From a virus (lineage: Duplodnaviria > Caudoviricetes): a stretch of DNA of 64,000 nt. The stretch's first letter is position 1, and every line of letters starts with the position of its first letter. The position numbers and the translations under genes are program-made. The notes beneath the pieces are model-generated. The model searched no databases. It saw only the letters and a list, made by a program, of their open reading frames with translations, and was not told where the DNA came from. Where the stretch lies: the IMG/VR virus record IMGVR_UViG_3300010965_000001, positions 128,001-192,000 of that record; one strand, 5' to 3'. Below are positions 2 to 62,395 of the stretch, in pieces.

Positions 2-967
2 CCTACCTACCCACGAACCACCGTCTGGTGTACGTGCTATTAAAGCGGTATTATTTCCAGTTATGGCGACAAACGTATAACCTCGATGGCAATACACCAA
101 ATATCCACGATTGAATGTGTTATATGCGGCCGCTGGAACCCACGATGCCCCATTAGTTGAAGAAGAGTACAATTGTGGAATTGTCGATGCCCCTCCTCCA
201 TCATTTGCAACAAAAAGTGTTGAACCAGAAACTGCAACGTCCAATGGTATGGAAGGAGGAGTTCCTCCTGCGGCTGCCCACGTTTGTCCACTATTTGCAG
301 ACACGTACATACCGTTATTGGTTGCAGCGAACAGGTGTGTACCACTTGTGGAAAATGCCAACGATTTGACATCAGTAGACCCTGGTAAACCGCTACTCGA
401 TGCTACCCATGAGGCGCCAGTATTCGCCGATTTATACATTCCAGTTGCCTGCATACCTGCATATAAAAATATACTACCATGTGTAGTATCAGTCTTTGAA
501 CGTATAGCCACGTCACCACCGTTAATCGTTTCATAACCGTTAAATGTGTTAGATGCGGTGGTTGCAAGTGCGGTTACATCGATAGTCTGTGAAACTGGTG
601 ACCAACTTGCTGACACTGCCATATACGAATTTTCTGCTTGAAGTGCATAACTACTACTCAACACGGTCATTGAACTTGTTTGCGTAATTAACACAAATGA
701 ACTTGTATCAATCGTCGTACTACTTCCAGCGTTGAGTGCATATGATGATGTAAGTGCATAACTACTACTTAAAACAGTCATGCTTGCAGTTTGATTGGTT
801 AGTACGAAGGAAGATGTGTCAGTAATCCCTCCTCCTCCGCCATTGATTGCATACGATGCTGTTAATGCATATGAGGAGGTACCAAATAAACTTGATGTTA
901 TACTTGATACAGTTAATGAGCTACTAACTGTCAACGAATTTGTATTTAAATTACCTTTAAGTTTCAT
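2..967 (-). CDS. Tail-fibre-like protein with Ser/Ala-rich SSYA repeats and BNR/Asp-box propeller (3' end runs off window)
   Basis: Open frame from ATG 967 (MKLKGNLNTNSLT...) to the window edge, not in ORF track; repeated SSFVL..SMTVLSSSYAL and YxSxNxGxSW motifs. Confidence 0.75.
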   Translation of the reverse strand, partial: MKLKGNLNTNSLTVSSSLTVSSITSSLFGTSSYALTASYAINGGGGGITDTSSFVLTNQTASMTVLSSSYALTSSYALNAGSSTTIDTSSFVLITQTSSMTVLSSSYALQAENSYMAVSASWSPVSQTIDVTALATTASNTFNGYETINGGDVAIRSKTDTTHGSIFLYAGMQATGMYKSANTGASWVASSSGLPGSTDVKSLAFSTSGTHLFAATNNGMYVSANSGQTWAAAGGTPPSIPLDVAVSGSTLFVANDGGGASTIPQLYSSSTNGASWVPAAAYNTFNRGYLVYCHRGYTFVAITGNNTALIARTPDGGSWVGR

Positions 968-45214: not shown

Positions 45215-45290
45215 TGGAGCGAGCCGAAGGAATTGAACCTCCATCCTCATGCTGGATTTAGCATGCCATCTTAACATTAGACGAAGCCCG
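45215..45290 (-). tRNA. tRNA with Gly-type body and atypical anticodon loop (TAATCCA)
   Basis: GCGGGCT/GGCTCGC, U73, encoded CCA; stem CATGC/GCATG. Confidence 0.7.
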
Positions 45291-45306
45291 CATATGTAAC
45301 TGTAAT

Positions 45307-45842: not shown

Positions 45843-45920
45843 TGGTATCCCGAATAGGATTTGAACCTACATTCTCCAATTATGCACCTATCGTTTAGGA
45901 AACGCGGCCAATATCGGGAC
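45843..45920 (-). tRNA. Atypical tRNA-Arg(CCT) lacking a canonical D-arm
   Basis: Acceptor GTCCCGA/TCGGGAT+ACCA, T-arm, loop TT-CCT-AA. Confidence 0.65.
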
Positions 45921-47585: not shown

Positions 47586-47604
47586 AGTAACCCTTTTTTG
47601 TTTG

Positions 47605-47679
47605 TAGCGTTCGTGGGATTCGAACCCACACGTAAGTAATTTTTGAGACTACATCCTCTGCCAGTTGGGATAGAACGCC
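47605..47679 (-). tRNA. tRNA-Leu(CAA), short variable region
   Basis: Cloverleaf, loop CT-CAA-AA. Confidence 0.85.
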
Positions 47680-48845: not shown

Positions 48846-48921
48846 TAGGCGTGGTAGGAGTCGAACCCACCTAACAAGGAGATATAAGCTCCTTTCCTGC
48901 AACCACGCTTGATTCACGCCC
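48846..48921 (-). tRNA. tRNA-Ile(TAT)
   Basis: AGGAG/CTCCT stem, loop CT-TAT-AT. Confidence 0.8.
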
Positions 48922-52744: not shown

Positions 52745-52822
52745 TACACACAGAAGGACTCGAACCTTCATTTTCAACCATTACCTATAGTCCCGCGTAT
52801 CAGACGGGCTGGATATGTGTGC
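52745..52822 (-). tRNA. Atypical tRNA-Ile(GAT) lacking a canonical D-arm
   Basis: GCACACA/TGTGTGT, CCCGT-CTGATAC-GCGGG, canonical T-arm. Confidence 0.7.
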
Positions 52823-52829
52823 ATTGTTG

Positions 52830-52912
52830 CTCATTAGGTAGGATTCGAACCTACAGGGGCGTTAGCCGTCCGCTTAACAGGCGGGGGAGTTTACCAGTTC
52901 CTCTACTAATGA
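52830..52912 (-). tRNA. tRNA-Asn(GTT) with long variable arm
   Basis: Cloverleaf; 14-nt V region. Confidence 0.8.
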
Positions 52913-52926
52913 ATATAAATTTTTTG

Positions 52927-53008
52927 TGCATTCGGAAGGAGTCGAACCCTCGTTGGATTTCTCCACCGCTTAAGAGGCGGGTGCATAATGCCGTTCTGCC
53001 ACGAATGC
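52927..53008 (-). tRNA. tRNA-Lys(CTT) with long variable arm
   Basis: Cloverleaf; GGA-GAAA-TCC V hairpin. Confidence 0.8.
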
Positions 53009-55220: not shown

Positions 55221-55311
55221 CGGAAAAGAGAGGATTCGAACCCCCAACCCAGCTTTCGCCAAGAACTGTTTTCGAGACAGTAGCGGTCATCCAGTTACGC
55301 TTTACTCTTCC
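55221..55311 (-). tRNA. tRNA-Ser(CGA)
   Basis: Cloverleaf, long V arm. Confidence 0.9.
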
Positions 55312-55549: not shown

Positions 55550-55696
55550 ATTATTTTTTACTATCCCACAATGCCCAAATCAATCCAACTAATACGATAG
55601 CGGGTATTGTCCACCAAGGGTCTTCTTTGTTAATCTTAATCTTATTCCAAAATTCTTTTAACAGTTCATTCATTGAAAACCTTTGTTTGTGTATTG

Positions 55697-55779
55697 CGGA
55701 AGATATAGGAGTCGAACCTATACATCCTTTCGGACGGCAGTTTTCAAGACTGCTGCAATAGCCATTATGCGAATCTTCC
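55697..55779 (-). tRNA. tRNA-Ser(TGA)
   Basis: Cloverleaf, long V arm. Confidence 0.9.
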
Positions 55780-55781
55780 AT

Positions 55782-55925
55782 TTAACAATTTGTTTTATAC
55801 TTTCTCACACGACCTTTCCATCTTCGAATACAAATCAAACATGCTTTACTTTCTTTTATCATTTTGCGTATTTTTAACTTCTTGTAGACAGAAGAATTTG
55901 TCGTATTTTTCAAAGTATCAGTCAT
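55782..55925 (-). CDS. Small basic protein between tRNAs
   Basis: MTDTLKNTT..CLIC.. Confidence 0.4.
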   Translation of the reverse strand: MTDTLKNTTNSSVYKKLKIRKMIKESKACLICIRRWKGRVRKYKTNC

Positions 55926-56056
55926 AGTATATTCAGTTATGCGATAGTGAACAGTAATTAAACCTTTACCTCCATAACTCGTTTTGAGTGAGTCAGCGCT
56001 CTGATTTGAACAGGCGATTCGTAGCGTGCAAGGCTCGCGAGGTTTCTCATATTTTG

Positions 56057-56136
56057 TAGACTTGATAGGATTTGAACCTACATTTTCAGCTCCAGTTACG
56101 ATTAAATGTTTCGAAGACATACTCGGCTACAAGTCC
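56057..56136 (-). tRNA. Atypical tRNA-Arg(TCG) lacking a canonical D-arm
   Basis: GGACTTG/CAAGTCT, ATGT-CTTCGAA-ACAT, canonical T-arm. Confidence 0.65.
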
Positions 56137-56351
56137 ATATAAAATTAAACCCAATTGATGCCGTATTCATCTCTGCGGGGTTGCAATGCCTTACGTAAAG
56201 AATGTCTGATAGCACCATCGCCTTTACTACCAAACTGCTCTCGGCTACTGAACTATAAAACCGTCAACCTACACATTAAAGTGCCCAGCCTCCCGATAAC
56301 GATTATGTGATGACCAGGAATCGTTAGTTCATTTACATCTCTTGGGTATTG

Positions 56352-56422
56352 AGCATCGTATCGGTTACGCTCCGATTTTTGTAACTTGGCAAGTTACCAT
56401 TCTACTATTAAATTAACGATGC
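56352..56422 (-). tRNA. tRNA-Gly(GCC) with atypical T-loop (AGCGTAA)
   Basis: All four stems pair; D-loop lacks GG. Confidence 0.75.
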
Positions 56423-58495: not shown

Positions 58496-58573
58496 TAGGA
58501 AGAGATGGATTCGAACCATCAGTCTCCGAGTCAATGATTCCCCGGCGTTTTGCGCTTATTAAACTATCTGCCT
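58496..58573 (-). tRNA. tRNA-like gene with 10-nt anticodon loop (GAATCATTGA)
   Basis: Canonical T-arm, CCGGG/CTCGG stem. Confidence 0.55.
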
Positions 58574-59080: not shown

Positions 59081-59328
59081 GGATGCTGTTTTACCATTGC
59101 CACTACAAAAAGTCGTTAGACAATCTGGTGGGAGTCGAACCCACAACTTCATCCTTGTTAAATCCTGCCATATGTCCTATCCGTTAGACGATGTTACCCC
59201 GAAGGGCACCACTGGGATTCGAACCCAGATTTTCCAGCCTGTTAAACACGTAGAGTGCTCTGACCACTGAGCTACCGTGCCGTCTTTTGAACGAACACAG
59301 GTGGGATTCGAACCCACGACCTCTCTAC
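59081..59328 (-). ncRNA. Array of three circularly permuted tRNA-like modules
   Basis: Order T-arm, loop-capped acceptor stem, D-arm in each unit; see findings. Confidence 0.7.
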
Positions 59329-59341
59329 TCCTTTTCTTAAA

Positions 59342-59431
59342 TGGGGTGACGAGTGGAATTTGAATCCACGATAGGGTATTATCCCAACGAGGGCCACAAC
59401 CTCGCGCAATTGACCGCTCTGCCATCGTCAC
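59342..59431 (-). tRNA. tRNA-His(GTG) with long variable arm and encoded CCA
   Basis: CGAGG-TTGTGGC-CCTCG, C73. Confidence 0.8.
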
Positions 59432-61519: not shown

Positions 61520-62395
61520 AAAAGGTTGAGAGATTACACCTTCTACGCATTTCCTTTTCGTAGATTATAGTGACCTTGCGGGTCAGTTTCCTACTTTCTC
61601 CACCAGCGTTCAGCTCGAGTAGAAATGCATGACTTCCGTTGTTTTTAACGGTGACGGTACCGATATGTATGAGCCTACTCAATCCTTGTCAATTCTCCCT
61701 GCCTTGCGAGCAGTTAATCCTTGCGGGGAATAGATGCAGACTTGAATTAAATTCCTACGCCTTGCGGGTTTCAGAACTCTCCATTCCTTTCGGTGGAGAT
61801 TTAAGCCATTTTTGTTCTCATACATGACCACGACTTTGCTGTTTTTAATTGTCTTGGGATTTGAACCCAATCTTTAGTTCCATATACTAACGCTCAACCA
61901 TTTGAGCTAAGACTGTGCAACTCACAAAAGACGTGCGTGGTCAGTGGTTCCATTCTCTTTTGGAAAACGATATGCCACACGCCCTGTATCTTTCGTCTGC
62001 TCGACTACTCAACGGATTTTCAAGATTTTGGTGCTTATGGAACAACCACACCAACACCAACCTCTTTCAATCTAAATAGAAGCCCTTATTTTGCATCACT
62101 CGGACAACTACTCTCCCCTTCATTTCTCGTTCATCGTCTCGTTTGGTATCTGCTTACTCGGCACCACCCGCTAGTCCAGTCCTACGGAGTTACCCTCGGT
62201 CTGTTCGCAGCGAAACTTCTGACATACTTCCAGCAGGATTAGTGGCTGAAAGACTCCGAAACTCGGTTTGCATAAGTGACCAATTGAGATTGGCGACGCC
62301 CTGTGAGCGGGTTAAGTCTTTTACCATATTACTACGGCTTATCTTCTCCCTTGCGGGAATGGATGTCATACCACCCATTTTAAACTTTATAATTC
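61520..62395 (-). ncRNA. Large ornate ncRNA, GOLLD-like
   Basis: About 870 nt with no credible ORF, five C-GCAA-G hairpins, embedded tRNA-like domain, own sigma70 promoter, U-rich 3' end; family call not confirmed by a covariance model. Confidence 0.65.

Follow-up and report, generated by a model that had tools for sequence, protein, structure and literature searches.

A conserved phage-borne family of putative tRNA-Arg genes with a predicted split D-arm

Introduction

According to a 2024 report, all known bacterial tRNAs are canonical cloverleaves (PMC11551756). In this study, we describe an 80-nt gene on the minus strand (56136..56057) of a phage sequence, which contains the parts of a tRNA-Arg in an unusual order along the chain. 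The DNA analyzed here, referred to as the window, is a 64,000-nt stretch (bases 128001-192000) of a 210,562-bp IMG/VR virus record (IMGVR_UViG_3300010965_000001) that was rated complete by CheckV. The right third of the window is a minus-strand island with 34 tRNAs called by ARAGORN, a transfer-messenger RNA (tmRNA) and a GOLLD RNA, and the gene is located in this tRNA cluster of a giant phage, flanked by tRNA-Ser(UGA) (55696-55779) and tRNA-Gly(GCC) (56351-56422). An earlier note, made from the sequence alone, had read the element as an arm-swapped tRNA-Arg(TCG) in which GGACTTG, TA and GCCGAG are followed by the anticodon hairpin, a relocated segment and the T arm. Exactly this order was found on the minus strand, which reads GGACTTG / TA / GCCGAG / TATGT-CTTCGAA-ACATT / TAATCG-TAACTGGA-GCTG-AAAAT / GTAGG-TTCAAAT-CCTAT / CAAGTCT / A. 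Comparison with homologous sequences indicated that the element typifies a conserved family of tRNA-Arg genes (and some tRNA-Ile genes) that is carried by phages and has a split D-arm. We consider it likely that the product works as a tRNA-Arg whose strand topology is new.

Results and discussion

Layout of the gene and of its homologs

A first pattern scan of IMG/VR with the 25-nt signature GGAGYTGAAAATGNNNGTTCRANTC yielded 65 loci, and a second scan, in which the four bases of the GCUG strand were left free, yielded 108 loci. After removal of duplicates, 98 distinct homologs from IMG/VR and metagenome-assembled genome (MAG) contigs were combined in a nearly gap-free alignment (A3), to which all counts out of 98 refer. 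Most of them (88/98) were exactly 80 nt long, and the shared layout can be written as 7 + UA + 6 + 17 + 6 + 8 + 4 + 5 + 17 + 7 + 1, with two helices designated Pa and Pb. A covariance model (R1), built from the first 55 homologs including the window copy, assigned 86.6 bits to the window copy (E = 2.4e-21 in the window) and 76-97 bits to other members, as compared with no more than 29.6 bits for the canonical tRNAs of the window. The earlier note had spoken of a tRNA-Arg(TCG) "copy", which does not do justice to the element: it is not private to this genome, being one member of a large phage family with 98 distinct homologs. The parts of the gene in the window are as follows (all on the minus strand).

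56130..56136 (-): 5' strand of the acceptor stem, nt 1-7 (GGACUUG); partner at 56058-56064; 7/7 pairs covary and 98.3% of cells are paired
56126..56129 (-): 5' strand of helix Pa (U8, A9, G10, C11), predicted to form the outer part of the split D stem; covariation links nt 10 and 11 to 56089 and 56090, and U8 and A9 are invariant
56123..56125 (-): 5' strand of helix Pb (C12, G13, A14), predicted to form the inner part of the split D stem; covariation links nt 13 and 14 to 56100 and 56101, and C12:G38 is invariant
56122..56122 (-): G15, counterpart of position 26; pairs with 56104, the first nucleotide past the anticodon stem
nt 10-15 (-): linker GCCGAG, leaving only 6 nt from A9 to the anticodon stem
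56105..56121 (-): anticodon arm UAUGU-CUUCGAA-ACAUU, nt 16-32, with the anticodon UCG at 56112-56114; from the Rfam alignment, with five covarying pairs
56102..56104 (-): UAA joint past the anticodon stem; its U is the partner of G15, and its two A residues are bulged
56099..56101 (-): UCG, 3' strand of helix Pb, from family covariation; together with the UAA joint it makes up nt 33-38 (UAAUCG)
56091..56098 (-): D-loop-like bulge UAACUGGA, nt 39-46; UAA..GGA is invariant in 98 sequences, as counterparts of A14, R15, G18, G19 and A20
56087..56090 (-): GCUG, 3' strand of helix Pa, nt 47-50, from family covariation
56082..56086 (-): AAAAU, nt 51-55, counterpart of the variable loop (44-48); invariant, in part because the search patterns fixed it
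56065..56081 (-): T arm GUAGG-UUCAAAU-CCUAU, nt 56-72, from the Rfam alignment; the stem pairs covary
56057..56064 (-): 3' strand of the acceptor stem, CAAGUCU (nt 73-79), and discriminator A (nt 80); CCA is not encoded, the next bases being CAA

In the window copy, 7 pairs (one of them G-U) make up the acceptor stem and 5 the T stem, and the anticodon stem consists of 4 pairs and a U-U apposition. The segment between the anticodon arm and the T arm comprises 23 nt including the D-loop-like UAACUGGA.

Covariation of the displaced strands

The three canonical helices (acceptor, anticodon and T) covaried in A3 as in any tRNA. The evidence for the rearranged core came from two long-range pairings that had been proposed in the earlier note, TAGC with GCTG and CGA with TCG, for which covariation among homologs had been named as the check. 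Both were borne out. First, nt 10 and 11 covaried with the C and the first G of GCUG: nt 10 formed GC in 53 sequences, AU in 38, UA in 4, CG in 1 and GU in 1 (unpaired in 1), and nt 11 formed CG in 70, UA in 10, AU in 7, UG in 2 and GC in 1 (unpaired in 8). Second, nt 13 paired with the C of UCG in all sequences (GC 72, AU 16, CG 7, UA 2, GU 1, unpaired 0), and nt 14 paired with the U of UCG in 60 sequences, with five pair types, being unpaired in 38. Taken alone, these four variable pairs, each of which occurs in four to five types, were formed in 88% of cells. Their covariation score was 0.764, a value attained by 0 of 500 shuffles, and sliding the partner gave no more than 0.131. When all helices were considered, 96.3% of cells were paired, with a score of 0.854 versus at most 0.144 for slid partners. 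The remaining pairs of the two helices, C12:G38, U8:G50 and A9:U49, were invariant; pairing of U8 and A9 would be compatible with the data, and these two nucleotides may make tertiary contacts instead. The nucleotide at position 15 paired with the first base past the anticodon stem in 75 of the 98 sequences (GU 52, AU 15, CG 5, GC 2, UG 1), and this pair corresponds to the 26:44 pair. Inspection by eye of the divergent Ile sub-type revealed that nt 10 again varies in step with a base of the segment preceding AAAAY, namely the one located four from its end (U-A, C-G, G-C).

These pairs also locate the anticodon hairpin, which the earlier note had tentatively described as an insertion inside the D-loop with no arm at the canonical position. 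The canonical D position is indeed empty, with only 6 nt between A9 and the anticodon stem, and the hairpin does lie within the D element. Its site can be refined: the insertion follows the 5' strand of the D stem and precedes the D loop, which thereby becomes an 8-nt bulge in a split stem.

If the two long-range pairings were not formed, the gene would encode a D-armless tRNA with a long variable region, either unpaired or locally folded. The Rfam alignment, which shows 20 nt as a plain insertion, would agree with such a molecule, and RNAalifold leaves the region unpaired. However, a local hairpin in the variable region (the 3 nt before the D-loop motif with the 3 nt after it) was paired in only 19% of cells, the level of the shuffled sequences, and was therefore rejected, whereas the long-range pairs were formed in 88%, each in four to five types. 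Neither of the corresponding tRNA classes fits the family: the invariance of UAA..GGA and the covarying D-stem equivalent of 4-7 bp set it apart from D-armless tRNAs of the mitochondrial type, and no local hairpin in the variable region was found that would place it in class II (long variable arm). We consider a D-armless fold very unlikely.

Covariation is also informative about whether the unusual order is a property of the RNA at all. The transcript might be cut and rejoined into a cloverleaf by phage repair enzymes, or the sequence might be the 5' end of an open reading frame (ORF) of 112 codons (55782-56120, minus strand), which is opened by an ATG within the anticodon stem of the rewired tRNA. 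As regards the former, the covariation matches the collinear order, and the partners of nt 12-14 lie 5' of the D-loop motif, which is impossible in the canonical order; thus, the mature RNA itself would be rewired. As regards the latter, no PHROG family match was found for the ORF, and the family varies by compensatory pair changes rather than by codon position. The probability of either explanation appears negligible. The ORF ends 3 nt before tRNA-Ser, and any real gene in it probably starts downstream of the tRNA.

Recognition by tRNA models and gene finders

The Rfam tRNA model RF00005 matched the window copy over its full length (1-71) with 34.8 bits (gathering score 29). However, this fit required that 15 D-arm positions be reduced to 5 nt and that 20 nt be inserted in the variable region ahead of the T arm. 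The acceptor stem, discriminator and T arm were present, as was a 7-nt anticodon loop with U33 and a purine at 37, whereas the D hairpin (10-13/22-25) was missing between nt 9 and nt 26, so that the arms do not follow the cloverleaf order. Judged from its sequence, the window copy agrees with tRNAs in every feature that we compared except the order of arms that defines the cloverleaf.

ARAGORN did not call the window copy with default, intron or mitochondrial settings; across a lowered threshold and the intron and mitochondrial modes, the outcome was no call or an implausible Asn(AUU), which was discarded. In the whole family, only 10 of 97 loci were detected by ARAGORN. Thus, tRNA finders overlook most split-D-arm genes, and phage tRNA repertoires may consequently appear to be without tRNA-Arg.

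The lack of an ARAGORN call, together with an Rfam score that was the second lowest among the above-threshold tRNA matches of the window, could also point to a decayed pseudogene of a canonical tRNA-Arg, in which the D arm was deleted and the variable loop enlarged by insertion. Against such decay, the linker lengths 6 + 6 + 8 + 4 + 5 recur in 98 sequences of unrelated phages with compensatory changes, and the R1 score of the window copy (86.6 bits) falls within the family range (76-97 bits). We regard a pseudogene as extremely improbable. The pseudogene, coding-ORF and RNA-rearrangement explanations were all ruled out by the pattern of conservation and covariation.

Distribution of the family

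Blastn searches with the 80 nt against cultured phages matched 301 records. The matches were unannotated stretches in the tRNA arrays of 114-117-kb Vibrio phages, and also in 50-kb Pseudomonas phages; three of them were read directly and share the layout, encode CCA and have ACG, ACG and UCU as their anticodons. In addition, a clean member (82.4 bits) was located between tRNA-Val and tRNA-Met of Maribacter phage Panino, and a variant was detected in Microbacterium phage Pumpernickel at 65.9 bits. The hosts of these carriers therefore span Proteobacteria, Bacteroidota and Actinobacteria. Some copies of the split-D-arm tRNA carry a hypothetical-protein annotation; in Panino, the rewired tRNA (L134:1398-1505; L numbers denote loci) lies beneath the annotated hypothetical coding sequence (CDS) PANI_CDS0068, and a 5.5-kb CDS annotated as a tRNA methyltransferase begins directly after the tRNA array (L134:1627-3034).

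Among 185,579 species-representative genomes of bacteria and archaea, the first signature occurred in only 9 contigs; full members were present in 5 of them, all five being MAG contigs. One such contig, labelled Saccharofermentanales, contained a tandem of three rewired tRNA genes that are separated by about 10-20 nt (L129:1650-1926). The sole pattern match in an isolate genome (Rossellomorea arthrocnemi) was examined and found not to be a family member. Based on this distribution of sequences, the split-D-arm tRNA family appears to be phage-specific.

Members outside both signatures were found by R1 only, in addition to more divergent Ile(UAU/GAU) and Arg sub-types; in the matches obtained by the model only, the AAAAU position reads CAAAU, GAAAU or AAAAC. 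Two paralogs lie in the window itself: a tRNA-Ile(GAU) with related wiring (52745-52822, minus strand; R1 50.1 bits), which is missed by ARAGORN, and a more distant tRNA-Arg(CCU)-like gene (45846-45920, minus strand; R1 31.7 bits, Rfam tRNA 26.5 bits), which encodes CCA and largely lacks the outer helix. A second rewired Arg sub-type was observed at L025:4960-5039, L028:5569-5647, L043:964-1039 and L062:5533-5609. Its linker is 5 nt long (for example ACAGC or AUGAC), GGAUAGGAAGAU or GGAAUAAU replaces GGAGCUGAAAAU, and the outer helix, like that of the Arg(CCU) copy of the window, is short or missing. No exact 32-nt match was present in IMG/VR, blastn of 1 kb against cultured phages matched the neighboring tRNA-Ser alone, and a search for related phages via the baseplate protein returned only two short contigs.

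Arginine identity and codon supply

Almost all homologs (96/98) had an Arg anticodon (UCU 65, ACG 19, UCG 8, CCU 3, CCG 1), and U33 and a purine at 37 were present in 97 and 98 sequences, respectively. The bacterial Arg identity set consists of A20, which is the main determinant, C35, U/G36 and the discriminator A/G/U73 (PMC9976931). In the family, an A followed the GG in 98 of 98 sequences, C35 and U/G36 were found in every member with an Arg anticodon, and the discriminator was G in 40, A in 32 and U in 26; the window copy has A after GG, C35, G36 and A73. The identity set thus appears to be retained, provided that the A after GG corresponds to A20. Among the first 55 members, 36 encoded CCA directly after the discriminator.

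At 41 of 97 loci, the gene lay no more than 20 nt from a canonical tRNA gene; in Vibrio phage D260, it follows tRNA-Leu by 6 nt and precedes tRNA-Pro by 9 nt. The 25-kb stretch of D260 with the annotated tRNA array contained 17 ARAGORN tRNAs and none for Arg, the split-D-arm gene being the only Arg tRNA detected there by ARAGORN or R1. No ARAGORN tRNA was found in Pseudomonas phage vB_PaeM_Ty (44.8% GC), where an Arg(UCU) member was the only tRNA-like gene found and AGA and AGG account for 37% of the Arg codons. The host of this phage is GC-rich, and we regard this as a classical codon-supply situation. In the window genome, the Arg tRNAs comprise canonical UCU and GCG and rewired UCG and CCU genes, by which the six codons are each covered once; CGA and CGG make up 21% of the Arg codons in long ORFs. 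Translation in E. coli even tolerates a tRNA that lacks the D arm entirely (PMC11551756).

On the other hand, the element could be a tRNA mimic that acts outside translation, either as a decoy or sponge for nucleases or as a regulator binding arginyl-tRNA synthetase (ArgRS) or other tRNA-binding proteins, for which no fit to the ribosome would be needed. The core is non-canonical, and a canonical tRNA-Arg with the same anticodon also occurs at 10 of 97 loci. Moreover, phage tRNAs are reported to counter tRNA-cleaving defences, evading them by changes in the anticodon loop (PMC10264068) or replacing cleaved host tRNAs (PMC11555353, PMC11464382), and for type I-A retrons, cleavage of tRNA D loops has been proposed (PMC12916289). 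However, a decoy would need neither an intact 7-bp acceptor stem, a discriminator and an encoded CCA nor a U33/R37 loop and the full Arg identity set, and because the acceptor end and the identity set are complete, a pure decoy is less likely. In addition, the anticodons span all Arg codon families, and the gene is the sole Arg tRNA found in the scanned region of D260 and the sole tRNA-like gene found in a low-GC Pseudomonas phage rich in AGA and AGG. A mimic therefore seems quite unlikely.

Proposed fold and function

The preferred interpretation is an elongator tRNA-Arg(UCG) in which nt 8-14 would run as the 5' strand of a helix and continue, via the 26:44-like pair, into the anticodon stem. 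The 5' strand would then be paired without a break over nt 1-20: 7 nt of the acceptor stem, 4 of Pa, 3 of Pb, the single 26:44-like pair and 5 of the anticodon stem. The returning strand would consist of a 2-nt bulge, the UCG paired with nt 12-14, an 8-nt bulge (UAAnnGGA), the GCUG paired with nt 8 and 10-11, AAAAU and the T arm. In this fold, the 8-nt bulge between Pb and Pa would carry the canonical core residues A14, R15, G18, G19 and A20; the D stem would be split, with the partner of nt 12-14 lying 5' of the D loop and that of nt 10-11 lying 3' of it, and the anticodon arm would emerge at the site where the D loop otherwise closes the hairpin. In AAAAU, the last U could serve as the Levitt partner to A15. 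In three dimensions, the duplex of nt 8-14 may sit where the D stem would otherwise be, its strand polarity being reversed, so that the bulge could reach the T loop and its GG could dock there to give an L-like elbow. From U8 to the anticodon loop, the stack would have 13 layers, which in this model nearly equals or slightly exceeds the normal augmented D/anticodon stack. We suppose that the gene would be transcribed together with the minus-strand tRNA array and trimmed by RNase P and 3' processing enzymes, that a host enzyme would add CCA, and that host ArgRS would charge the product by reading A20, C35, G36 and A73, allowing CGA and CGG to be decoded for the phage.

Several observations weigh against this interpretation. 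The third Pb pair (nt 14) is open in 38/98 sequences, and U8:G and A9:U never vary, so this part of the helix rests on no covariation. The minimum free energy fold of the single window sequence is unremarkable (z = -1.56), and RNAalifold on the family predicted the three canonical arms only, with neither Pa nor Pb; the support is therefore comparative, not energetic. If all pairs form, the 13-layer arm may exceed the canonical one, and its fit to the ribosome is not obvious. No RNA sequencing runs containing the stretch were listed. Finally, canonical and rewired tRNA-Arg(UCU) genes were found within the same few kb at 10 of 97 loci (L015, L018, L021, L026, L043, L083, L084, L086, L100 and L123), which implies that decoding does not depend on the rewired gene in every case. 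One might speculate that such redundant decoders, which differ in their cores, reflect an additional kind of selection, for example for evading defences that target tRNAs.

A broader scenario would extend this speculation. A second natural tRNA fold might have evolved in phages and spread over hosts of at least four bacterial phyla, with the D-arm rebuilt from strands flanking the anticodon arm; it would work with host ArgRS, EF-Tu and ribosomes, and would be selected because its altered core escapes defence nucleases that cleave tRNAs, or host tRNA decay, that recognize the canonical D arm and elbow. We put this forward tentatively, as an idea that is more likely to fail than to hold in its entirety.

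Comparison with known tRNA architectures

Like canonical bacterial and phage tRNA-Arg (class I, RF00005), the family has a 7-bp acceptor stem, a discriminator, a 5-bp anticodon stem with a 7-nt loop (U33, A37), a 5-nt variable loop, a T arm with GUUCRAAUC, the D-loop residues A14, R15, G18, G19 and A20, and the Arg identity nucleotides. In contrast to it, nt 9 and 26 do not enclose a D hairpin, the anticodon arm comes after the 5' strand of the D stem and ahead of the D loop, the partner strand of the D stem is halved around the D loop, which becomes a bulge, and the 5' strand would be paired over nt 1-20. The D hairpin is likewise missing from its canonical place in mitochondrial tRNA-Ser(AGY) and in the synthetic mini HisT of E. 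coli, and such D-armless RNAs are used (mitochondria) or accepted ab initio (E. coli) by synthetase, EF-Tu and ribosome (PMC11551756). However, those RNAs lose the D-loop residues and the contact between D and T loops and are shorter (62 nt for mini HisT), whereas the family, with 80 nt and carried by phages of bacteria, keeps all D-loop residues and a paired equivalent of the D stem. The allo-tRNAs with 8/4 or 9/3 acceptor/T branches (PMC5389517) are also natural non-standard tRNAs obtained by genome and metagenome mining, some of them in phages, but they keep the cloverleaf order and alter helix lengths, whereas the family alters the order of elements along the chain.

Departures from the textbook order of tRNA parts are shared with the circularly permuted tRNA genes of Cyanidioschyzon merolae. 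Transcripts of these genes are circularized and re-cut to give a normal cloverleaf, whereas the covariation of the family fits a collinear RNA. The tRNA-like structures of plant RNA viruses such as turnip yellow mosaic virus (TYMV), some of which are aminoacylated, are non-decoding 3' ends of genomes with a pseudoknotted acceptor arm. Like them, the family would reach an L shape through another strand connectivity; unlike them, its gene stands free in a tRNA array and has a normal acceptor stem and anticodon loop. In the literature on non-cloverleaf, D-armless and atypical phage tRNAs that we searched, most subscription journals lying outside the search, no description of the layout was found. 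The split-D-arm layout, as deduced from sequence comparison, is regarded as a new structural variant of tRNA that is very probably functional.

If this is correct, a conserved natural tRNA with another order of elements would be used in bacterial cells during infection, which would be a direct counter-example to the universality of the cloverleaf. It would also show which parts of the tRNA core are truly required by synthetase, EF-Tu, RNase P, the CCA-adding enzyme and the ribosome, offer a new scaffold for the design of orthogonal tRNAs, and provide a testable link to antiphage defences that target tRNAs. Because cultured phages carry such genes, the function of the split-D-arm tRNA can be tested directly.

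Other features of the tRNA island

Upstream of the rewired gene, the 214-nt spacer that separates it from tRNA-Gly (56137-56350, minus strand) has no long ORF; it gave no Rfam match, and its predicted fold was no more stable than shuffled sequences (z = -1.04). Four tRNA-like genes on the minus strand were detected by Rfam and missed by ARAGORN (58496-58573, 45218-45291, 48847-48921 and 55222-55311): in two of them the anticodon loop is odd and includes AUC, a third is Ile(UAU)-like with an unusual D region, and the fourth is a 90-nt Ser(CGA)-like gene. At 59204-59329 (minus strand), a 78-nt 'tRNA-Asn' with a normal D arm and an irregular anticodon region overlaps a sub-threshold match to YrlA (Y RNA-like; 36.2 bits, gathering score 69).

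Long variable arms are normally limited in bacteria to tRNAs for Leu, Ser, Tyr and selenocysteine. In the island, long variable arms were observed in tRNA-Asn(GUU) (52829-52912, 84 nt), tRNA-Lys(CUU) (52926-53008, 83 nt) and tRNA-His(GUG) (59342-59431, minus strand, 90 nt), and tRNA-Leu(CAA) (47604-47679) was only 76 nt long. The phage tmRNA (42372-42755, minus strand; 111.4 bits) lies at the start of the island, and its tag peptide ends in AEYAYAA. A full-length GOLLD RNA (61523-61987, minus strand) scored 180.5 bits (gathering score 150) and contains a tRNA-like His(AUG) element at 61847-61916.
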